Shown here piece after piece: positions 8,533-60,522 of a DNA stretch of 64,000 bases. Below the pieces are notes generated by a model that saw only the letters and a list, made by a program, of their open reading frames with translations, had not been told where the DNA came from and ran no database searches. The DNA is from a virus (lineage: Duplodnaviria > Heunggongvirae > Uroviricota > Caudoviricetes), in IMG/VR virus record IMGVR_UViG_3300028048_000051, positions 111,843 to 175,842 of that record, one strand, 5' to 3'. How positions within the stretch are numbered: position 1 is the stretch's first letter; every line of letters starts with the position of its first letter. The translations under genes and the position numbers were made by a program.

Positions 8533-9100
8533 TCCGGTTATCCTGCTGTGTACCGCCACTACCGGGTTGAAACCGCCGGAGGGCAAGTGCATCGGGGTTT
8601 GGTATCGGATATTCGACGTCAGAAGTCAGATAAGCACACAAGATTGTCTGATCAGAGACCTTTCGGAAGAGGAGCTTGCTCAAGGATCCGAGTACCATAA
8701 AATTACTTCGGAGTTTGTCCGGGTTCATGCTTTGGACAAGGAAGCGTTCCGCAGACGTTGTGTTGAACTTTTCGGTTCCGCCACGCTGTTGACGTTCAAT
8801 CCGAAGTTCCAGTCGCAGTGGCTTCCGGAAGCCGTCGGGCATCTGTTTGATCTGCCGTTGCTATTGAAAGGAGCCGACATGCGCATATGTATGACGCCTG
8901 AGGATTCAGGCAGTCTGCGTAACGCGGAGGCATTTTTCATGACAATGACGTTTTCGCCGAAAATCCAGGAATCCATGCGTTGGCATGGTGTCACTGAGGC
9001 AGAGGCAGAATTCCCGGTCGAGTCGAAACTCGTCGGCCTTTTCCATCTTTTCCGGGCTTGGAAAAACTTGGAACTTTCGGTGCAGGAGCCGACAACTTGA
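8483..9100 (+). CDS. degenerate DnaQ-like (DEDD) 3'-5' exonuclease fold protein, probably catalytically inactive
   Basis: VILLCTATTGL resembles the Exo I motif DTETTGL with D changed to C and E to A. LLTFNPKFQSQWL is Exo II-like. Confidence 0.4.
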   Translation: MEQRKRLTWGSLLPTNSPVILLCTATTGLKPPEGKCIGVWYRIFDVRSQISTQDCLIRDLSEEELAQGSEYHKITSEFVRVHALDKEAFRRRCVELFGSATLLTFNPKFQSQWLPEAVGHLFDLPLLLKGADMRICMTPEDSGSLRNAEAFFMTMTFSPKIQESMRWHGVTEAEAEFPVESKLVGLFHLFRAWKNLELSVQEPTT

Positions 9101-9542
9101 TGGCGTCGAACATGGCATTTGCACGATTGACGACGCACACCTCGGGGATGCCTTCGTTGTTGATTCGTATTGCTTGCGCAACGACGGAGCGTGATTGCAG
9201 CACGACGTTTCCCGGTAGGGCATGGATGAGTATGAAGCCGTCCTTGCCTCCGGGATCAACGAGGGAGGCTCCCTGAGTGTCCATCAATCGCCAATGTGCG
9301 GAGTTGACGGAGAGCAGCACACCATCCCGAGAAGAGGCATCAGAATCTGATTCCTTTACAAAGGTGAGCGACTGCTGAGTAAGTTTACCAAATTTGTCAG
9401 GAGAATCGAATAATGGATACATCATAAGTGATGCACGTTGGATCTGTGCAGTTCCGGGATCGTCGGTAAGGATACTCTCGTATTTACCAACATCGATTCC
9501 CGGTACCGGGTCTGTATCAACCGTATAACAAAGAAGTGACAT
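8991..9542 (-). CDS. hypothetical protein (minus-strand ORF, divergent from the RT gene)
   Basis: 183-aa ORF with protein-like composition. Its start codon abuts the RT ATG (cat|ATG) and its 3' end overlaps 8483..9100 by about 110 nt. Alternative reading: this span is the RT-associated ncRNA. Confidence 0.3.
   Translation of the reverse strand: MSLLCYTVDTDPVPGIDVGKYESILTDDPGTAQIQRASLMMYPLFDSPDKFGKLTQQSLTFVKESDSDASSRDGVLLSVNSAHWRLMDTQGASLVDPGGKDGFILIHALPGNVVLQSRSVVAQAIRINNEGIPEVCVVNRANAMFDAIKLSAPAPKVPSFSKPGKDGKGRRVSTRPGILPLPQ
9101..9542 (+). ncRNA. candidate RT-associated non-coding RNA region (retron msr/msd-like or DRT-type ncRNA); speculative
   Basis: About 440 nt immediately upstream of a small retron-sized RT with no + strand ORF. 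Short palindromes (cccggtaccggg, ttgcgcaa, gggaggctccc); no long a1/a2 pair found by eye. Confidence 0.2.
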
Positions 9543-10499
9543 ATGTTTGATTTCGATATGCCTCCCATCTCATGGAGGGAAGCAAGGATTCCCAAAAAAT
9601 CCGGGGGATTCCGTAAACTGGAGATCCCCAACGACGAGTTGAAGGCGGTACAACGTACTATCTTACAATACTTGTACCGTAACAAACGGCTTCGTCCGTC
9701 TGCCATGGCCCACGGGTTTGTTCCGTTCAGGAATACCTGCACGGCCCTGACACACCACAATACCAAAGCACCGATTATTCTGTGCATGGATATCCATGAC
9801 TTCTTCGGGACCTTTCCCCTGGAACCGGTGCGGGGGCGAATGCTGTCTGCCGGGTTGCCGGCTACTGTGGTGGACAAAATCCTGTCTGTCTGTACCTACA
9901 AGGGACATTTCCCTCAGGGTGCTCCGACTTCGCCGTATCTTACCAACATCGGAATGTTGGACACCGACAGGGTGCTTGCCGCCTACGCGTCGCGCCATGG
10001 TTACATCTACACCAGGTATGCCGACGACATTACCTTCTCTCTGAAGTCGTCTGAAAGGCCGATCAAAGGACAGGCATTCATTTTCTACGGCGTGGAGAAG
10101 ATTCTCAGTGTGATGCTGGGTATTCATCTCAAGAAATCCAAAAGTCACATCATCGACATCAAAGGTCGTGCCGCACGTCGCGTCACCGGTGTCGTGGTGC
10201 GCAAAGACGGGCTTGGGTTCAATGCACCGCGGAAAATGCGTAAAAACACTCGCGCCGGTATTCATAACCTGGCGGAGAAGATCAGGAAAAATCGAGGCAG
10301 GGTTTTCGACGAGGACCATCTGAAGTGGCGTGAACTGCTGGGTTATGCCAGGTACATGGATACGCTGCGCAGTTACAGCCCGGAACCGCAGGCGGCCGGA
10401 GCCGATCCGACGATATCTGAGATCGACTGGCGCTATCTGTGTCGGAAATTCAATTACAAGAAAGGATTGGAAGATGGAAATGGAACAATTCCCGATTGA
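9543..10499 (+). CDS. reverse transcriptase, small retron/DRT-like (RT domain only, 318 aa)
   Basis: Contains motif 1/2 IPKKSGGFRKLEIP, motif A ILCMDIHDFF, motif B' QGAPTSPYLTN, motif C YTRYADDITF, motif D/E LGIHLKKSKS, and an RRVTGVVV 'VTG' motif typical of retron-type RTs. Confidence 0.85.
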   Translation: MFDFDMPPISWREARIPKKSGGFRKLEIPNDELKAVQRTILQYLYRNKRLRPSAMAHGFVPFRNTCTALTHHNTKAPIILCMDIHDFFGTFPLEPVRGRMLSAGLPATVVDKILSVCTYKGHFPQGAPTSPYLTNIGMLDTDRVLAAYASRHGYIYTRYADDITFSLKSSERPIKGQAFIFYGVEKILSVMLGIHLKKSKSHIIDIKGRAARRVTGVVVRKDGLGFNAPRKMRKNTRAGIHNLAEKIRKNRGRVFDEDHLKWRELLGYARYMDTLRSYSPEPQAAGADPTISEIDWRYLCRKFNYKKGLEDGNGTIPD

Positions 10500-11412
10500 T
10501 GACGTGATCCCGGTGGATCATGCGCATCTGATCGAGGACCAAAACCGCCTGATCCTGCAACATGGTGGGGTGGTTACTCGCGTATTCTTCAACAAGGTAT
10601 CGCGGATGCCGCTGGATCATTATCTGAAGCACGAACTGCCGAAGGCTGACGGGACGACGAAATGTCACCTGATCCGAGACTACAACCACAATAACATCAC
10701 CATGATTCTGGACGATCACGTGGCGGTGTATGATGTGGCTTCGATCGAGGAAGTGTCTTTGAAAGATTTGGCCGACAACCTGATCACGACACAGAATCTG
10801 GAGCTGTTTCCAGATATTCCGTATCAGATCATCGGGTACATCAAACAACAGGACTGCCTGCTCGTCACGGTGTATATCCCAGCCAGTTGGTTCAATTACA
10901 GAGCTGCTGACGTGGATTCGGTGCGGGTGATGCATCCGCCGCTGTGGTTCAGAATCAAGCTCAACAATGCCGGAGCCCTGCTGTCTTCCGCCATGGCGGT
11001 GGTGCGAACCACAGAACCGCGATGGAAAAATACGCAGCTGTACAAATGGCTGTTGCCTAACGTATTTCCGAACAATGAAATATGTTTGGGATGTTCCCAA
11101 CTGTCCGGGGGCATCGATAATCCCACGAGCGGCCAGGCAATCATGTCGGTGTATCATCAGGTATTCGACAGTTTGTGGAACTACCATTTGTTCAACAGCG
11201 ATGATGCCGACAAGGCCGTCATGGCTGCATTCAATGCATTACCGAAAAACAGGGTACCGTTCGAGGGTCTGACGGACAAGGCACACAGTGCCACCGCATC
11301 CATAAAACGCATGCTGTCCGTGCTGCACCAGCCGGAAGGTTGGCGACAGATAAAATGGCCCGAGAATCAGTTTTCCGCCGAGGACTTTGTCCGAGGTAAG
11401 GGAGGTAGGTGA
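10474..11412 (+). CDS. hypothetical protein immediately downstream of and overlapping the RT gene
   Basis: Internal ATG (MEMEQF) of ORF 10330..11412. Contains VFPNNEICLGCSQL and MHPPLW segments with weak resemblance to E2/UEV-like HPN loops. Confidence 0.5.
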   Translation: MEMEQFPIDDVIPVDHAHLIEDQNRLILQHGGVVTRVFFNKVSRMPLDHYLKHELPKADGTTKCHLIRDYNHNNITMILDDHVAVYDVASIEEVSLKDLADNLITTQNLELFPDIPYQIIGYIKQQDCLLVTVYIPASWFNYRAADVDSVRVMHPPLWFRIKLNNAGALLSSAMAVVRTTEPRWKNTQLYKWLLPNVFPNNEICLGCSQLSGGIDNPTSGQAIMSVYHQVFDSLWNYHLFNSDDADKAVMAAFNALPKNRVPFEGLTDKAHSATASIKRMLSVLHQPEGWRQIKWPENQFSAEDFVRGKGGR

Positions 11413-11669
11413 TGAGACCGAGTATTGCCGGCCGCCACTCCAAATTGAGGTGTGTAGAAGCGCCAGTCATGGTTACACGCGCCGGTAAAATGCTTTTTGA
11501 GGATGTTACGGTGTATTATCCGGAACTGAAAGCACTGGCGCTGGCTTTCAACAAATCCAAGGAGACCAGACGTATGAACATCTTGGCTGAACACGTCAAG
11601 AACGAACGACATATGGCTGGGGAAATCAACACGGAGGACCTGGATATAACCGTCCTCGACAACAAGTAA
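11409..11669 (+). CDS. hypothetical small protein
   Basis: ATGATG start overlapping the upstream stop codon (GTGATG). Confidence 0.45.
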   Translation: MMRPSIAGRHSKLRCVEAPVMVTRAGKMLFEDVTVYYPELKALALAFNKSKETRRMNILAEHVKNERHMAGEINTEDLDITVLDNK

Positions 11670-11679
11670 AGGTATTCAA

Positions 11680-12747
11680 ATGAAAAACATGATTGTGGGC
11701 AGCGATGGCTGTCTGATTCGGACTCAGTCCAAGCTGATTTCCGGATGGGAGAAGTGCGACGACCTGAAAGTACTCAAGGCGTATGCCAAACCCCTGCCCG
11801 ATGGCTTTCAGGATGGGCTGAAGTGGATCGGAGCCAAAATTCCGGTCGAACTGATGCGCCGCATGTGGGCAACAATGAAAGAATTTCCTCATCGGGAAAT
11901 CGGATTCATGTTGTACATCAACAGCGAGAGTGGGGAGTGGTATGTAAAGTGCCCGCCTCAGCGCGGTTCCGGCGGCAGCGTCTTCATGGAAGACAAGGGA
12001 GAAGGCGTTCCTGACGGATTCGCCTGGATCGGCACTGTGCATACGCATCCCAACATGGGCGCGTTTTGGAGTGGCACCGATCAGAATGACCAGAAGGCCA
12101 AGTACGGGCTGCACTTCGTTTTCGGACTTGACGACGGTGTGCCCAAGCGGTGGAAGGTGACGATCTTCACACCGCGGGCGTCGTACGATCAGGAGATTCT
12201 TGACGTAGTTGAAGCCCTTCCGGATGACCAGAATCTTGGCGAGCCCGTCAAGGAATGGCTGGAGGTGTTGAATAAGCCGCTGCCCGAATCCGCCGAACGT
12301 CAGCGCTGCAATGTCGCGTGGTCTACTCCGATGTCGCCCTCGATGGCGTCGGCATTGCTCACCAAGCCGACGCTGTCGATACCTTCCGGGTCTTACTCCG
12401 ATCCTTCTCGCGAACGCAGAGCGCTCATGACCGATGTATTCAGAGAGGGATGGGAAGAGGTGCTCAAGGCACATATCGATTCTCTGTTCGGGCTTCTCGA
12501 TATGTGCGAAGATTCTTTCCCCGAACTTATGATATCCGACCTGCTCGTTGAGCAAATGTATAATCACGGGTGGCAGGATGCGGTGATGCAGTCATTGATG
12601 GAGATCCAGTCCGATGATGGATGGAGTTCTGCAGAATTGCGCAGAGCCTACGACATGCAACTTGCCGAGGGTCAGGATAAGTATCCGCCGAATGACGCTG
12701 ATGATGACCTGTGGGATGTGGGCTGCAGAAAGGCTTCCAAATGCTGA
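11680..12747 (+). CDS. JAB/MPN (JAMM) metallopeptidase domain protein with C-terminal extension
   Basis: E...GTVHTHPNMGAFWSGTDQND is the JAMM motif HxHx7Sx2D. Confidence 0.75.
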   Translation: MKNMIVGSDGCLIRTQSKLISGWEKCDDLKVLKAYAKPLPDGFQDGLKWIGAKIPVELMRRMWATMKEFPHREIGFMLYINSESGEWYVKCPPQRGSGGSVFMEDKGEGVPDGFAWIGTVHTHPNMGAFWSGTDQNDQKAKYGLHFVFGLDDGVPKRWKVTIFTPRASYDQEILDVVEALPDDQNLGEPVKEWLEVLNKPLPESAERQRCNVAWSTPMSPSMASALLTKPTLSIPSGSYSDPSRERRALMTDVFREGWEEVLKAHIDSLFGLLDMCEDSFPELMISDLLVEQMYNHGWQDAVMQSLMEIQSDDGWSSAELRRAYDMQLAEGQDKYPPNDADDDLWDVGCRKASKC

Positions 12748-13640
12748 ACATATATGTGATCGGCTGTGGAGGAATCGGAGGATATCTGCTGGACTTGCTG
12801 CCTCAGGCACTGGCCAGTGCCAGTCTCGATGCAATACAGGCCAACGGCACCGACATTACCCCCTTGCTGGAGAAAGCGGGTAATTGCTATATCCAATGTG
12901 TTGCCGACAGGCTGGTATTGATCGATGGCGACTCGTTCAATGCCCGCAATGCGCTGCGCCAGGGAGCAGGAGCCGGAGGCAAGCTGGTGACGCGCCTGCG
13001 GAGGATCAAGGATTCCATGCTGATGCAGACCTATCTGCAGGGCATGCATCTTTCAGGGGTCGATGGATACATCACCCCCGACAATATGGAGGATCTCATC
13101 CCTCGCATGGCTCCCGAAAACCCGGATAACATGCCGGACAACGCGTTTGCCGACAACTCTGGTGGGTTTGTGCTGCCAGGCCGCAAACACTATGCTTCCA
13201 CGGTAGTGTTCCTGTGCGTGGACAACGTCAAGACTCGGTACGAGGTTTCCAAATATATGGAGACATTCGATAATTGTCTAGTCATCAATGGCGGAAACGA
13301 GCGTACCACCGGGCATGTAACCGTGTATGAGAGGGTTGGCGGCATACCGCTTGATCCCAACATCATGGACATCTATCCCAACATCACGCCGGATGCCGAC
13401 AAGCGTCCGGACGAGTTGGCGTGTACTGCGGTAGCCCCCAAGCATGACCAGATCGCGGTCACCAATGCGATCGTAGCCAACGTGATGGCGATGATTTTCA
13501 TCCGATGGCTCGCCAACGGCACCATCAACCGGCAGATAACCCGCAAGGGATCTGTTGTGGTGGAACGCAAGAATGAAGTCGTCATCGACATAGAAACTAT
13601 GACGATGACTCCGTTGTATCACCCGAGAAACGATGGGTGA
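12741..13640 (+). CDS. ThiF/MoeB/E1-like ubiquitin-activating-enzyme family protein
   Basis: MLNIYVIGCGGIGGYLLDLL is the Rossmann GxGxxG motif. LIDGDSFNARNALRQ resembles the E1 motif LxDxDxVexSNLnRQ. ATG overlaps the upstream stop (ATGCTGA). Confidence 0.8.
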   Translation: MLNIYVIGCGGIGGYLLDLLPQALASASLDAIQANGTDITPLLEKAGNCYIQCVADRLVLIDGDSFNARNALRQGAGAGGKLVTRLRRIKDSMLMQTYLQGMHLSGVDGYITPDNMEDLIPRMAPENPDNMPDNAFADNSGGFVLPGRKHYASTVVFLCVDNVKTRYEVSKYMETFDNCLVINGGNERTTGHVTVYERVGGIPLDPNIMDIYPNITPDADKRPDELACTAVAPKHDQIAVTNAIVANVMAMIFIRWLANGTINRQITRKGSVVVERKNEVVIDIETMTMTPLYHPRNDG

Positions 13641-13679
13641 TTATAGTAAACCAAGGCCAACAAAGAAAGGAAAAGGAAA

Positions 13680-14057
13680 ATGGCTCAGGTTAACTTCCAT
13701 GTCAGGTCCAACCGCATCTCGCAGATGGAGGTGGACGGAAACAAGACGGTTGCGGAGATCCGTGAGATGCTCGCGCAGGCCGGTTTCGATGTGCGGGAAT
13801 CGCACGTCACGATCATCCGTAAGGACAATACGGCCTTGATCGGACACACCGATGGCTATGTCCCGGGGAATACCGACATCGTGCGTTTCGACACCTCGAC
13901 CGTGAATCTGCCGCTGGCGGAACGGGCCTATCGTGAGGCGGGTAATGCCTGCTGCGAAGCCTGCCGGCAGCCCGATGCTTCTGTTCGCGTCGGCGGTCAT
14001 GTGCTGAGTGTCGAGGCCGGCGAGGACGGCAAGACCGTGGTCATCAGGTTCCGGTAA
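13680..14057 (+). CDS. hypothetical protein (possible beta-grasp-like)
   Basis: ORF with a purine-rich ribosome-binding site; no motif recognised. Confidence 0.5.
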   Translation: MAQVNFHVRSNRISQMEVDGNKTVAEIREMLAQAGFDVRESHVTIIRKDNTALIGHTDGYVPGNTDIVRFDTSTVNLPLAERAYREAGNACCEACRQPDASVRVGGHVLSVEAGEDGKTVVIRFR

Positions 14058-14138
14058 TCCCGGAACCAGATGGGAGTATTCAACAAACAATCAACAACCA
14101 AATGTAAAAACACAATTTTTCAAGAAAGGTATTTCAAA

Positions 14139-14684
14139 ATGAAGAACATCACCATTATCGCCATCGAGAACAACGTCACCCGTACTTTCGTCGCCGCCGA
14201 GGATGAAACTCTCCGCTCCGTGTTGGAGCATGAGGATGTCCTCAATTTCTTCGACGCCGAGGCAGAGACCATCCGCAGCCATTTCGACACCTACAACGGC
14301 ACCGACATGTCGAACGAGGCGGTCGCCAGTGCGCTGCTCAACGCCGTCGTCAACGATGGCGACGTCATCGAGATCGATCTTGCCGGCAGCGAAGAAGCGG
14401 GAGAGGACAACGACGCTCAGGGCGGAACTTGTGTGGTCGCCACCTCCGGCGGCATGCAGGAAACCGAAGTTACGATCACCGAAGGCATGACCGTGCGTGA
14501 TGCGGTCTACAGCGAGGCCGTGCGCACCCGCTCCGGCATGACCGACGCCCAGCTTTCGGCCAGCAACTTCACCATCAACGGTGAAACCATTGCGGCAGCC
14601 AACCTCGGCAGTCGGCAGGTCCGTAACGGAGATCGCATCGTGCTTTCCCCGCATGCCGCCTGCACCAAGGGCTGCCGTCGGTAA
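14139..14684 (+). CDS. tandem ThiS/MoaD-like (beta-grasp, ubiquitin-like) domain protein with internal di-glycine motifs
   Basis: Domain 1 ends ...NDGDVIEIDLAGSEEAGEDNDAQGG; the linker reads TCVVATSGG; domain 2 reads EVTITEGMTVRDAVY...FTINGETIAA...NGDRIVLSP, resembling ThiS INGE...DGDxIxI. Confidence 0.55.
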   Translation: MKNITIIAIENNVTRTFVAAEDETLRSVLEHEDVLNFFDAEAETIRSHFDTYNGTDMSNEAVASALLNAVVNDGDVIEIDLAGSEEAGEDNDAQGGTCVVATSGGMQETEVTITEGMTVRDAVYSEAVRTRSGMTDAQLSASNFTINGETIAAANLGSRQVRNGDRIVLSPHAACTKGCRR

Positions 14685-14692
14685 TCCGCACT

Positions 14693-15208
14693 ATGCGGAC
14701 ATGGCAGATACACATTCCAGTACGTCCCAAGTGCGTACAGTCCACCGCGTTCAGACGCGGTCAGGGCGCGTACGCACCTAAGGACGTAAAAGAGTGGAAA
14801 GCCAAGATACGCCCGTTCATAATGGCCTCCTGCGGGGGGCCTCCCACCAAACTTCCGGTCGAGATCGTAGCACTCAGATACATATTCAAGTACCCGCAGA
14901 GCACGCCCCTGAACGTCAGAGAGTACATCCGTGCCGGAGGACTTGTTCCTTACCTAAAGGCCGCGGATATTCATGACAACCTCAACAAGGGCACGATAGA
15001 TGTCTGCAAAGGTATCGTATTCGAGGACGACAACCTCGTATGGCGGATCAAAGGCACGGTGGAGAAGGTGTACGGAGAACAGGACGGAATGTATCTGGAA
15101 TTCCGCGAATGTCCAGATGTCATGCTGATAGACGGACGGAAAGGAAAAGATCTTGATGAGTCTGCTGACGAAATTCAAGACGACTCCGGAACTTTTGGCT
15201 GGTCGTAA
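14693..15208 (+). CDS. rusA: RusA-like Holliday junction resolvase
   Basis: WQIHIPVRP... N-terminus, and ADIHDNLNKGTIDVCKGIVFEDDNLV matching the RusA DxDNxxKxxxDal...DD motif. Confidence 0.55.
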   Translation: MRTWQIHIPVRPKCVQSTAFRRGQGAYAPKDVKEWKAKIRPFIMASCGGPPTKLPVEIVALRYIFKYPQSTPLNVREYIRAGGLVPYLKAADIHDNLNKGTIDVCKGIVFEDDNLVWRIKGTVEKVYGEQDGMYLEFRECPDVMLIDGRKGKDLDESADEIQDDSGTFGWS

Positions 15209-15551
15209 GGATCTCCATCTGATTGTGGATCTGCTGTGGCAGAGAGGACCGTTCACCCGTACCCAGGTGTATCGGAAAATCTCCGATATGCTTGGATCGG
15301 GTGAGCTGGTCCACATTTCCGATCTTAAACTGTCCCAGATACGCTGGCTTGTCGATGCACTGCAGTTTGAATTGCAGAAAGTCGGAGTACTGCGTTGCAA
15401 GGACTGCAAGTACAAGTTCGTAGATCCGGTTTCCGGATTGTTTCGTTGCTCCAAATGGGGCAGTTTTTTCGAGAAGGGCGCGGTTGACATTGTCCCGTGC
15501 GAGGATTTCAGGAGAATAAAAAATGATTTTTCCATCAACCTTCAAACTTGA
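15153..15551 (+). CDS. hypothetical protein with Cys cluster (CKDCKY...C...C)
   Basis: ORF with ribosome-binding site; overlaps rusA 3' end by 56 nt. Confidence 0.4.
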   Translation: MMSLLTKFKTTPELLAGRKDLHLIVDLLWQRGPFTRTQVYRKISDMLGSGELVHISDLKLSQIRWLVDALQFELQKVGVLRCKDCKYKFVDPVSGLFRCSKWGSFFEKGAVDIVPCEDFRRIKNDFSINLQT

Positions 15552-16584
15552 CTGGTACGGAAGAATACTGGACGTTTATCTTCCGGTCGGGAAACGGAAT
15601 ACCAAAGAGTATCCGGAGTTCTACAAGGATTCCGAGGTATATCTGAACGCACGTCAGTTGAGTCAGCGTTTCCCGTACAACCCTCTGTGGATGTTGCTGC
15701 ACAGGCAAAATACACTGAAACACGACGTCAGAAAGATGAACAGATTGCCGCCTTCCACCGGCAAGCACAAGATCAAGCGAGATCAGACGCAATCGGATAG
15801 AGAGTCCATCATCGGACTGCTTTCAGAGGTGCTTCAGCCCGGTGTGAAGGGTTCGCGGCAGGGGCGCTACATAAGCATTCAGCAGCTGAGAGATATTCTC
15901 TATCTCGCCATCGCGAATTGGAACAAGCTCAAGATGCCCAAATCCGTGTACATCGACAGATGCTGTGCGTCTCCATCTGACGCAGATGCGCTGTACCTGT
16001 CGACCAAGGAGTGGTTCAGTGCCTGGTTGAATCTGCTCACCTCCGATCTGCCGGCAGCAGAGGGAGAGGCGGATGCGCTGTCCTATTACAGGGATTGGGC
16101 AAGGCAACTGGTGCACCGGGATCATCATCCGGAAAACTCTTCCGCGATGCTTCCGGAGCGTATCATCCCCTACGCCGGTGAGGACCGCGTGGAACTGCAG
16201 CTGGCTCCCGTGCAGAGTGTGGCACAGCAGATGGCGTTGAAGCCGGAAGATATCATTGCCGATCCGCATACCACACTGACTTTGAAAACCGAAGTGGTAG
16301 TCAATCACGCAACCTCGGAAGAGATACATGAAATCATGGAGCGCATCCAGTTGCTCGATGATTCCGGAGCCAAATTCTCGGTAGGAGGGATGGGAACGCT
16401 GGTGATCGAGATCACGGTTCCCACTTATTGCGGATATCCGATAAGCGATGGAGACCACTCGTTGTCTTTGGTCACCGCGGCGAGACATATCGACACCATA
16501 TTGCGACTAGTTGAAGTAGCCCGCAATATGCAGGAAAGTCAGCGGCATGTGGAAAAACTGGCAGAAGCCTATTCCGGGAGGTGA
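15523..16584 (+). CDS. hypothetical protein
   Basis: 353-aa ORF with ribosome-binding site GGAG before the ATG. Confidence 0.55.
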   Translation: MIFPSTFKLDWYGRILDVYLPVGKRNTKEYPEFYKDSEVYLNARQLSQRFPYNPLWMLLHRQNTLKHDVRKMNRLPPSTGKHKIKRDQTQSDRESIIGLLSEVLQPGVKGSRQGRYISIQQLRDILYLAIANWNKLKMPKSVYIDRCCASPSDADALYLSTKEWFSAWLNLLTSDLPAAEGEADALSYYRDWARQLVHRDHHPENSSAMLPERIIPYAGEDRVELQLAPVQSVAQQMALKPEDIIADPHTTLTLKTEVVVNHATSEEIHEIMERIQLLDDSGAKFSVGGMGTLVIEITVPTYCGYPISDGDHSLSLVTAARHIDTILRLVEVARNMQESQRHVEKLAEAYSGR

Positions 16585-60295: not shown

Positions 60296-60375
60296 GGGGC
60301 CGGAAGAGGTTCGACGGGGCGCAAAGCCAAAGCGCAAAGCTCCGGACAGGGATTCGATTCCCCTCGGCTCCACCA
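60296..60375 (+). ncRNA. tmRNA tRNA-like-domain mimic (5' and 3' tmRNA termini fused, about 80 nt, genomically encoded CCA, G3·U70 acceptor pair)
   Basis: GGGGCCGGAAGAGGUUCGACGGGG... resembles the tmRNA 5' end GGGGCUGAUUCUGGAUUCGACGGG. ...GGACAGGGAUUCGAUUCCCCUCGGCUCCACCA resembles the tmRNA 3' end GGACGCGGGUUCAACUCCCGCCAGCUCCACCA. No mRNA-like domain. Confidence 0.45.
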
Positions 60376-60388
60376 ATTCTTTCATGGG

Positions 60389-60461
60389 GGCGCGGTAGCT
60401 CAAAGGTAGAGCTCTCGACGCTTAATCGAGCGGGTGAAGGTTCGAGTCCTTCCTGCGCCCC
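60389..60461 (+). tRNA. tRNA (anticodon-loop positions give CUU = Lys, but with unusual G at position 33)
   Basis: Acceptor GGCGCGG/CUGCGCC; U8A9; D-stem GCUC/GAGC; anticodon stem CUCGA/UCGAG with loop CGCUUAA; T-arm GAAGG-UUCGAGU-CCUUC. Confidence 0.65.
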
Positions 60462-60522
60462 CGTCATTTTATAAATCAATATGGACGTCATCCACGGTGG
60501 GTGGCGTCCTTTTTATTTCCCA

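Follow-up and report, generated by a model that had tools for sequence, protein, structure and literature searches.

The window analysed here, a 64,000-nucleotide stretch of DNA from a large uncultured phage (positions 111,843 to 175,842 of the IMG/VR record IMGVR_UViG_3300028048_000051), probably carries at 10474–14684 a phage-encoded, self-contained cassette for the conjugation and deconjugation of a ubiquitin-like protein (Ubl). Six abutting or overlapping genes on the plus strand, about 4.2 kb in length, encode in this order an E2-like protein, a small protein of 85 aa, a JAMM/JAB metallopeptidase, a ThiF-type E1, a beta-grasp-like protein (X), and a tandem beta-grasp Ubl precursor (Y). 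A first-pass annotation of this DNA had proposed a set of E1, JAB, and tandem Ubl, which is borne out. It had counted three adjacent genes in the span 11680–14684; there are four, and the gene for protein X (13680–14057) had been overlooked. The successive intergenic gaps, from an upstream reverse transcriptase (RT) gene through the gene of Ubl Y, are −26, −1, 10, −7, 39, and 81 nt, an operon-like packing, and an AAAGG motif recurs roughly 10–15 nt upstream of the gene starts. A scan of the cassette for promoters and terminators gave nothing above chance, with internal terminators no more numerous than in shuffled sequence.

The E2-like protein (10474–11412, plus strand, 312 aa) was assigned to Prok-E2 family D, resembling PRTRC_B, from Pfam matches and motif spacing. 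The window protein matches Pfam Prok-E2_D (PF14460) with E 1e-3 and 19.3 bits, under the 25-bit gathering threshold; among the 67 members of its family, 46 match this model at E<=0.01, the best with E 3.7e-9. Comparison by hhalign with Vibrio PRTRC_B proteins gave probabilities of 75% and 67%. The equivalent of the HPN motif is L194-P195-N196, and the pattern L-P-N196-x7-C204 has the spacing of a canonical E2, the LPN..C motif aligning on HPNINSNGSIC (HPN..C) of UbcH5b. The putative catalytic Cys204 (nt 11083–11085) is invariant in the family, together with P155 and G206; N236 is nearly so, and N196 is found in at least 90% of sequences. The earlier suggestion that this upstream protein is a divergent E2 is supported by these sequence features. 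Of the two weak segments on which the suggestion drew, FPNNEICLG holds the putative catalytic Cys, and MHPPLW, taken as HPN-like, aligns instead with the conserved beta-strand FPYV[IV]F. The core is flanked by a beta-rich N-terminal region (residues ~1–130) and a helical C-terminal region. The E2 profile found no solved relative and no significant match among PDB sequences, and an AF2 model built on a four-sequence alignment, with only three usable homologues, had a pLDDT of 46.5, at which the fold is not readable.

The start of the next gene (11412–11669, plus strand) overlaps the E2 stop codon (ATGA). Its 85-aa product has homologues of 77–93 aa at the same position in 11 of 17 closely related sequences, none was detected in loci L010, L011, and L013–L016, and no family match was found in Pfam, NCBIfam, PHROGs, or PADLOC. 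The JAB/JAMM (MPN+) metallopeptidase follows (11680–12747, plus strand, 355 aa). It scores 27.5 bits against Pfam Prok-JAB (PF14464; cut-off 25), which places it in the JAMM/MPN+ family, and it matches NCBIfam PRTRC_A with E 1.4e-5. The catalytic domain covers approximately residues 57–158, and the C-terminal ~200 aa are variable. The stretch HTHPNMGAFWSGTD (nt 12040–12081) is the HxHx7SxxD motif; all 18 relatives compared, gp195 of a Bacillus jumbo phage among them, share E73, H121, H123, S131, and D134 without exception. The first-pass reading of this gene as a JAMM/MPN metallopeptidase is thus confirmed by both the score and the invariant catalytic residues.

The E1-like adenylating enzyme (12741–13640, plus strand, 299 aa) consists of a single ThiF/MoeB-type domain, and its gene overlaps that of JAB by 7 nt. 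Gene callers and homologues place the start at ATG 12741, and the open reading frame list has GTG 12711. The protein belongs to the E1/ThiF superfamily (PF00899, 33.5 bits; cut-off 28.1), as had been annotated; GCGGIGG corresponds to the invariant GxGGxG motif and DGDSFNARNALRQ to the invariant DG..N..RQ motif. The GxGGxG motif, D62-G63, N70, R73, Q74, D161, R166, and C228 are invariant across close and distant phage loci, and these residues, C228 included, are also found in a bona fide PRTRC ThiF. Cys228 (nt 13422–13424) is the putative thioester cysteine, judged by its position after the VDN motif. Against PDB sequences the E1 profile gave nothing significant, the best match (E 0.026) being an uncharacterised ThiF-type protein (9egc/9egb). 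The profile searches proposed with the first-pass annotation recovered ThiF and Prok-JAB above their cut-offs and Prok-E2_D below it in the window protein.

Two beta-grasp proteins complete the cassette. Protein X (13680–14057, plus strand, 125 aa) has an N-terminal beta-grasp-like domain (~1–72), which does not end in Gly, and behind it a variable tail rich in Cys (CCEAC). It is present in 16/16 close loci and has no Pfam or NCBIfam match; its N-terminal domain aligns with the Ubl of distant loci with an hhalign probability of 95.7% (E 1e-8). X is possibly an adaptor, a regulator, or a substrate. Ubl Y (14139–14684, plus strand, 181 aa) has a beta-grasp fold and is composed of an N-terminal domain (1–80), an acidic linker (81–94), a C-terminal domain (95–178), and the tail C179-R180-R181. 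The conserved C-terminal Gly expected of a Ubl modifier is present, since K177 and G178 (nt 14667–14672) are invariant, and the CRR tail (nt 14673–14681) follows. Cleavage had previously been proposed at GG sites. AQGG, named as the end of the first Ubl domain, sits at the boundary between the linker and domain 2, and SGG, named as the end of the linker, belongs to the turn between beta1 and beta2 of domain 2. Relatives do not conserve either site as a terminus, and their conserved end corresponds to K177-G178. In 39 of 42 distant loci the gene after E1 ends with EF[ILMV]K.AG.KG plus 0–6 residues, and among relatives the tail after KG is missing in L011 and P0130 and reaches about 20 residues at its longest. 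In L014–L016 and L023 the encoded protein is a poly-Ubl with a pair of KG sites, and L043 has two tandem Ubl genes. These variable tails, poly-Ubl proteins, and tandem genes imply the need for a processing protease.

Relatives in IMG/VR were collected by an alignment-based E1 scan, a scan with the single E1 protein having matched nothing. The close set comprises the window and L001–L016 (17 sequences) and the distant set 42 loci; L043 and L048 end at a contig edge and were left out of the 56 complete loci. The order E2, JAB, E1 is kept in all 56 complete loci fetched. More than 165 E1 homologues were found, many on contigs of 150–187 kb, and the E1 identity drops to 36–45% across loci while cassette position and gene order stay fixed. 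A Ubl ending in KG is encoded directly 3′ of E1 in 39/42 distant loci and one gene further in the close loci. The E1 alignment had no relative in a GTDB scan of 185,579 species genomes, which therefore gives no clue to the host. A literature search of partial coverage, and so amounting to absence of evidence only, turned up no account of E1, E2, JAB, and Ubl encoded together as a cassette by a phage, and a comparative survey of jumbo phages makes no mention of one (PMC7824862).

The cassette, with its overlapping reading frames, sits in a replication block of uniform gene orientation, among genes for RT, RusA, and NrdD, and not in a tail-gene setting. Enzymes acting on nucleic acids and nucleotides are abundant in the window (RtcB, RNA ligase, ThyX, NrdD), together with one tRNA. 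The retron-type RT (9543–10499, plus strand, 318 aa; RVT_1 E 7.6e-20) matches NCBIfam retron_St85 (E 2e-45, below cut-off) and PADLOC retron RT models (E 2e-48), and its gene overlaps the E2 start by 26 nt. It lies upstream of E2 in 16/16 close loci, in some with a NAD-ligase gene inserted between the two, and the 42 distant loci that retain E2-JAB-E1-Ubl lack it. The RT thus neighbours the cassette constantly within the close phage family alone, and we regard it as no more than a candidate member of the cassette. PHROGs has no family for any of the six cassette proteins, PADLOC gives them nothing beyond glycine-loop matches, and Megablast of 9500–15300 against GenBank phages and PLSDB plasmids returned no match.

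From the motifs observed in these proteins we infer each catalytic step of a possible cascade. Y would be made as a di-beta-grasp precursor ending in TKG-CRR, and the JAMM peptidase would remove its tail to expose Gly178, in relatives also cutting the poly-Ubl precursors. The ThiF-type E1, presumably a homodimer, would adenylate Gly178 and form a thioester on Cys228, from which the Ubl may be handed to Cys204 of the family-D E2-like protein with the assistance of Asn196. The E2 would then join the Ubl by an isopeptide bond to a lysine on its target without a separate E3, probably by means of its own flanking regions, and the JAB enzyme would be able to reverse the mark. Conserved residues alone leave the chemistry unfixed, as the related Bub pathway is reported to act through oxyesters and not thioesters (PMC11601596).

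The closest known kind is the PRTRC cassette, and the working is Bil-like; the phage set nevertheless falls outside the definitions of PRTRC, Bil, and CBASS Cap2/Cap3 alike. We know of no experimentally established function for PRTRC (TIGR03735-03742), which, matching on published components, we take to be operon type '6d' of Iyer, Burroughs, and Aravind (2006). Type 6d has a single-domain ThiF E1, a JAB, an E2-like protein with a conserved Cys but no canonical His, and a beta-grasp Ubl whose C-terminal Gly is conserved (PMC1779556). The phage cassette has the same components (E1, JAB, His-less E2-like protein, Gly-ending Ubl), and the only family-level matches of the window E2, JAB, and E1 are to PRTRC_B, PRTRC_A, and PRTRC_ThiF. 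However, the scores are far below the NCBIfam cut-offs of the PRTRC models (24.8 vs 144.75 bits for ThiF, 24.7 vs 101.8 for A (JAB), and 15.3 vs 131.45 for B (E2)), and Ubl Y has no PRTRC_C match. Among the ten proteins of 9543–16584 there was no match to PRTRC_C/D/E/F (NCBIfam) or ParB (Pfam, NCBIfam), nor to Pfam ParB in eight further window proteins. The phage cassette also differs in residing in large phage genomes rather than on plasmids and ICEs, in its tandem or poly beta-grasp precursor with KG and tail, and in its extra genes for X and the 85-aa protein. A Vibrio PRTRC locus that seemed to share the order 'E2-small-JAB-E1' was dropped from the comparison, as NCBIfam shows its ThiF neighbour to be PRTRC_B-like and not a JAB.

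BilABCD unites the same four activities (Ubl, E2, JAB deubiquitinase, E1). In type I, BilA is built of two beta-grasp domains, and in Bil Ubls a conserved Gly is followed by up to nine non-conserved residues, the JAB enzyme exposing the Gly before E1/E2 conjugation to lysine (PMC10557695); the KG and CRR of Y appear to follow this pattern of Gly and short tail. In contrast to the 299-aa single-domain phage E1, the Bil E1 is multidomain, with inactive and active adenylation domains (IAD, AAD) and a CYS insertion, and neither this architecture nor a CEHH-type E2 is found in the cassette. Furthermore, bacteria use Bil to defend themselves, tagging one of the structural proteins of the virion of the infecting phage, whereas here it is the phage that encodes the cassette. 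CBASS type II likewise combines E1/E2 chemistry with a JAB antagonist in phage-host conflict, but Cap2 fuses E2 to E1 and has the CD-NTase itself as the protein that it conjugates, without a separate Ubl, and the phage E1 and E2 are separate proteins. No CD-NTase or Cap3 was found at the cassette, and matches to PADLOC E1-E2 models are confined to the glycine loop (E 0.006–0.04). The resemblance to Bil and CBASS put forward at first thus stands for the logic and not for the proteins, there being no PADLOC Cap2/Cap3-type match and no solved Bil, Cap2, or Bub chain retrieved from the PDB by the E1 and E2 profiles. The Bub operons (type 6e) likewise hold divergent bacterial versions of E1, E2, and Ubl, and the Ubl precursor is reported to be processed (PMC11601596); the phage set differs in the invariant Cys of its E1 and E2 and in its JAMM protease. 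In lambda and T1 tail modules the proteins I (Ubl) and K (JAB + NlpC/P60) likewise place a JAB next to a Gly-ending beta-grasp (PMC1779556), though without E1 or E2, whereas the cassette is a full cascade in a replication block.

Could the Ubl be a sulfur carrier, its C-terminal Gly adenylated by E1 and converted to a thiocarboxylate that provides sulfur for a nucleoside of tRNA or phage DNA or for a cofactor, with JAB only maturing the carrier? ThiS, MoaD, Urm1, and SAMP are of this kind. The single MoeB/ThiF-like domain of E1 and the nucleic-acid and nucleotide enzymes of the window are in its favour, as is a protein after the Ubl in L037 that looks QueC-type and PP-loop-like by sequence appearance alone. 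The best structural matches of Y, which include sulfur carriers and RnfH, count against conjugation, and so does the simple MoeB/ThiF type of E1. Yet every complete locus has an E2-like protein with an invariant Cys, and we know of no sulfur-carrier system with an E2. In addition, the terminus is KG and not GG, placing Y outside ThiS/MoaD; the 18 window proteins scanned include no partner of the rhodanese, cysteine desulfurase, MoaE/ThiG, or thiolase-type PP-loop kind; and di- and poly-Ubl precursors suit conjugation better. We judge this explanation improbable. Even less credible is that no conjugation in trans takes place, with JAB and the beta-grasp protein forming a processing or chaperone pair like lambda I and K and with E1 and E2 degenerate or self-modifying. 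A JAB with a C-terminal-Gly Ubl is an established phage pair in lambdoid and T1-like tail modules (PMC1779556), and Foldseek also finds beta-grasp domains in entries for tip attachment protein J. However, the cassette lies among replication genes and not tail genes and has no NlpC/P60 domain or J-like neighbour, and catalytic residues that stay unchanged across deeply diverged loci speak for E1 and E2 being active enzymes; we give this explanation very little weight.

The remaining explanation retains Ubl conjugation as the chemistry and concerns its purpose: the module may be accessory cargo, a PRTRC- or Bil-like defence or superinfection exclusion system, perhaps acting with the RT, carried by the phage to block competing phages or mobile elements. 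The weak family links do point to PRTRC, a cassette of plasmids and ICEs, and a retron-type RT, a typical defence gene, lies immediately upstream in all close loci. In bacteria, the E1/E2/JAB operons known so far serve immunity against phages (PMC10557695, PMC11601596). Against this, position and order are fixed down to 36–45% E1 identity, unlike patchy defence islands; the genes are embedded with overlapping reading frames in a co-oriented replication block; the distant loci retain E2-JAB-E1-Ubl without the RT; and none of the 185,579 species genomes has a relative. Cargo of this kind is therefore, in our view, unlikely.

Because the cassette keeps its place in a block of replication and nucleotide metabolism across deeply diverged large phages, we think that it serves the phage's own infection cycle and is not accessory cargo, and that it modifies proteins of phage or host origin during infection. 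It possibly counteracts host defence. That a large virulent phage lineage (about 150–190 kb) and a wider jumbo-sized set encode a complete, co-transcribed Ubl module (E1, E2, deubiquitinase, and a di- or poly-Ubl precursor with a Lys-Gly end) as a core function, covalently tagging host or phage proteins, we put forward tentatively, at slightly short of an even chance; this core-function reading is drawn from synteny among E1-positive contigs, a sample outside which any family genomes without the cassette would fall.

To our knowledge, all Ubl conjugation demonstrated in bacteria to date belongs to anti-phage systems that the host encodes (CBASS Cap2 and Bil), and Bub is biochemically active. 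The system is small and its putative catalytic residues are clear (H121/H123 of JAB, C228 of E1, C204 of E2, and G178 of the Ubl), so that the question is directly testable. If the cascade is as proposed, the same chemistry would operate on both sides of the conflict between phages and bacteria, as a phage counterpart of the exploitation of ubiquitin by eukaryotic viruses and a mirror image of the Bil and CBASS defences. It would also provide a function for the long-uncharacterised PRTRC/Prok-E2_D type of cassette, and a very compact E1-E2-deubiquitinase-Ubl set with polyubiquitin-like precursors would join the picture of how ubiquitin signalling evolved. The conservation of this set in many big phages suggests a tagging of proteins by these viruses that resembles the one in eukaryotic cells.

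The module of JAB peptidase, E1-like enzyme and ubiquitin-like (Ubl) precursor proposed in the first-pass annotation is real, and it is wider than was seen there, with six genes and dozens of phage lineages carrying it. The plausible genes around the cassette are all on the + strand and closely packed. A retron-type reverse transcriptase (RT) gene (9543-10499, +) overlaps by 26 nt the gene of a 312-aa E2-like protein (10474-11412, +), whose stop codon overlaps, as ATGA, the start of a gene for an 85-aa protein (11412-11669, +). The JAB gene (11680-12747, +; 355 aa) follows and overlaps the E1 gene (12741-13640, +; 299 aa) by 7 nt. Next come the genes of a 125-aa protein, X (13680-14057, +), overlooked in the first-pass annotation, and of the 181-aa Ubl precursor, Y (14139-14684, +), and then RusA (14693-15208, +). 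An AAAGG motif, which looks like a ribosome-binding signal of phage and host, recurs about 10-15 nt 5' of the ATG in the E2, JAB, E1, X and Y genes (window 10455-14138) and supports the chosen start codons. Promoter and terminator counts inside the cassette were not above those of shuffled sequence.

The JAB and E1 assignments were upheld by Pfam (Prok-JAB, 27.5 bits against a cut-off of 25; PF00899, 33.5 bits against 28.1). JAB residues E73, H121, H123, S131 and D134 are invariant among 18 relatives. The GxGGxG motif of the E1, together with D62-G63, N70, R73, Q74, D161, R166 and Cys228, is invariant across close loci, distant loci, the ThiF of a Bacillus jumbo phage and one bona fide ThiF of PRTRC, a bacterial plasmid/ICE cassette. 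The protein upstream of them had been put forward as a possible divergent E2, and family profile matches and an LPN-x7-C motif make it probable that it is one; the MHPPLW segment taken as its HPN motif falls instead on a conserved strand, which in distant relatives reads FPYV[IV]F. Alone, the protein gives a weak match to Pfam Prok-E2_D (E 1e-3; 19.3 bits, cut-off 25) and one to NCBIfam PRTRC_B with E 0.01; 46 of 67 aligned family members match Prok-E2_D, the best with E 3.7e-9. P155, C204 and G206 are invariant in the family and N196 and N236 nearly so, and the L-P-N196-x7-C204 spacing is that of the HPN-x7-Cys of UBC enzymes, on which it aligns in UbcH5b. Comparison by hhalign with two PRTRC_B-like proteins of a Vibrio PRTRC plasmid gave probabilities of 75% and 67%. 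The AlphaFold2 model is of low confidence (pLDDT 46.5), and no solved relative was detectable by a profile search of the PDB. The form of about 310 aa is rare, with 81 clusters among 1.84 billion representatives in an exhaustive profile search.

AlphaFold2, Foldseek and hhalign all agree that Y is a tandem beta-grasp protein. Its model (pLDDT 76.7) has two beta-beta-alpha...beta units with a disordered acidic linker between them; both domains align on viral polyubiquitins in Foldseek, and hhalign shows the pair to be homologous (probability 95.6%, E 1e-8). The proposed Gly-Gly sites did not survive: AQGG, read as the end of the first Ubl, sits at the boundary of linker and domain 2, and SGG, read as the linker end, forms the turn between beta1 and beta2 in domain 2; neither is a conserved terminus. 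The conserved feature is Lys-Gly at 177-178, followed by CRR; relatives end exactly at KG (the close locus L011 and a further relative, P0130) or with 1-20 residues more. X is beta-grasp-like over its N-terminal ~72 residues (hhalign probability 95.7% against the Ubl of distant loci) and has a variable Cys-rich tail.

Metagenomes yielded more than 165 homologues of the E1, many of them on contigs 150-187 kb long. The order RT, (NAD-ligase in some), E2, (small protein in most), JAB, E1, X, Y, RusA is constant in 16 close loci and persists where E1 identity has fallen to about 36-45%. A further 42 viral loci, more distant, came from an alignment-based scan of IMG/VR; several of them lie on contigs 200-250 kb long. 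Iterated HMMs recovered E2-like, JAB and E1 in that order in every one of these covering the full region (L043 and L048, cut by the contig end, stand outside this count). The E2-like domain here lies within proteins of ~300-1,100 aa, mostly 800-890 aa. The gene directly after E1 ends in ...EF[ILMV]K.AG.KG plus 0-6 residues in 39 of the 42 loci, and its product is homologous to the C-terminal domain of Y (hhalign probability 92%), the alignment ending on KG in both. One distant locus has two Ubl units in a single ORF (L023, 7713-8672) and another a tandem pair of Ubl genes (L043, 1509-2356). In three close loci (L014 5146-6486; L015 8226-10049; L016 8226-9650) the product is 446-607 aa long and contains two Ubl domains that each end in KG; judged by their sequences, these proteins are polyubiquitin-like precursors that would need a processing protease. 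In such single-ORF arrangements further beta-grasp-like domains lie between the two KG-terminated ones. Cultured representatives are few and not annotated as such a cassette; Bacillus phage vB_BauM_KLEB27-3 has gp194 annotated 'ThiF' and gp195 'PRTRC_A domain'. No relatives turned up in a pattern scan covering 185,579 species genomes. At 120822-121328 of OY725881.1, a 167,780-bp 'plasmid' of Subdoligranulum variabile, lies a distant relative of the E1 (25% identity, E 8e-7). This extrachromosomal record of 168 kb, without annotation and from a gut Firmicute, is comparable in size with the present phage family; it may therefore be a phage or a phage-plasmid, and a host clue.

Distant loci of jumbo size have a second pair of genes 3' of the Ubl (L017 8800-9992; L020 8282-9471; L026 8287-9595; L023 9243-10633). 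One encodes an E1 paralogue of ~285-320 aa (ThiF E 7e-15); its last ~100 residues, with ...TGGA or ...ETGAA at the very end, are possibly a fused Ubl. The other encodes a small protein of 108-160 aa with a canonical HPN-x8-9-C E2 motif. Such a locus thus has two E1/E2 sets. An RNA-polymerase beta'-like gene comes next in at least 11 second-pair loci, with the motif NADFDGDQM seen in L026. The KG-terminated Ubl of distant loci also carries an N-terminal domain (L017 7697-8185; L020 7717-8202; L026 7732-8205; L037 7710-8171) that by eye resembles a nucleic-acid-binding helix-extended-helix of Rho_N/SAP type. A Pfam scan of 28 pooled distant-locus proteins, in which matches were not assigned to individual proteins, found Rho_N in four (best 1.5e-5) and SAP in one (3.8e-6), a hint that the role of the tag is associated with nucleic acids.

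The RT matches PADLOC retron RT models (E 2e-48), with NCBIfam retron_St85 under its cut-off, and lies immediately 5' of the E2 gene in 16 of 16 close loci. Same-strand intergenic room for a retron-like ncRNA is absent on both sides, since the RT gene is abutted at its start by a minus-strand gene and runs into the E2 gene at its end. The minus-strand gene (8991-9542, -; 183 aa), the sole convincing one of the region, is kept in relatives directly 5' of the RT (26-34% identity, DPCG motif); its product had no Pfam match, and its one PADLOC match (E 0.033) is at chance level. With a DNA-polymerase fragment, NrdD, RtcB, RNA ligase, ThyX, RusA, tRNA and group I intron, the wider window has the appearance of a large phage, and no close DNA match was found among GenBank phages and PLSDB plasmids. 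The intron (110-373, +; Rfam RF00028, 52.1 bits, gathering score 50) is found just 5' of the DNA-polymerase-like fragment (1130-1945, phrog_17) and is probably a self-splicing element interrupting the polymerase gene. The tRNA-Lys(CTT) (60389-60462, +) lies within 60296-60462; the 80-nt stretch directly 5' of it scores as Rfam tmRNA (52.2 against a gathering score of 47) with no ARAGORN call, and may be a second, degenerate tRNA-like element.

On balance we think that the cassette carries out protein conjugation. Its four predicted activities have intact and invariant catalytic residues, the gene packing is operon-like, and the terminal Gly of the Ubl is invariant and often masked by a tail or another Ubl unit. 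In the experimentally established Bil pathway, a JAB DUB exposes a conserved Gly preceding up to nine residues, and the Ubl is then attached to lysines through E1 and E2 (PMC10557695). By analogy, JAB would trim Y after Gly178, E1 would adenylate the Gly and form a Cys228 thioester, and the Ubl would pass to Cys204 of E2, which, with no dedicated E3, could hand it on to a lysine of the target; JAB might also undo the mark. Because Bub, a related pathway, employs oxyesters (PMC11601596), thioester chemistry is here only putative.

A sulfur-carrier role would suit the MoaD/ThiS-like fold, the simple E1 and surroundings rich in nucleic-acid enzymes, but we hold it to be quite improbable given an E2 in every complete locus, the KG terminus and no sulfurtransferase among the scanned window proteins. 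A processing pair like lambda I/K, working without conjugation, is unlikely given the genomic setting and the conservation of the active sites in both E1 and E2. Cargo for defence or superinfection exclusion, to which the PRTRC affinity and the adjoining RT might point, seems doubtful, as synteny is strict and the RT is absent from distant loci. For the conjugation cassette, its fixed place in the replication block across deep divergence, as judged on E1-positive contigs only, speaks more for a part in the phage's own programme than for accessory cargo.

The cassette resembles Bil in its Ubl, E2, JAB and E1, its di-beta-grasp Ubl and its masked Gly, but the E1 here consists of one domain of 299 aa, and a profile search of the PDB found no sequence link from it to solved Bil chains; we therefore reject Bil membership. 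CBASS Cap2/Cap3 identity was also rejected: E2 and E1 are not fused, there is no CD-NTase, and PADLOC gave no meaningful match. The sole sequence-level affinities are to PRTRC, presumably type '6d' of Iyer et al. 2006 (PMC1779556), with all scores far under curated cut-offs; no ParB-related gene or PRTRC proteins C-F were seen among scanned neighbours. A phage-encoded E1-E2-JAB-Ubl cascade was not found described in the literature covered, including a jumbo-phage comparative survey, although this coverage is incomplete and an earlier description possible. Since neither Bil nor CBASS membership holds and the PRTRC affinity lies under cut-offs, we place the cassette in the class of prokaryotic E1/E2/JAB/Ubl operons as a new variant borne by phages, nearest the uncharacterised PRTRC type, and its function is directly open to experiment.
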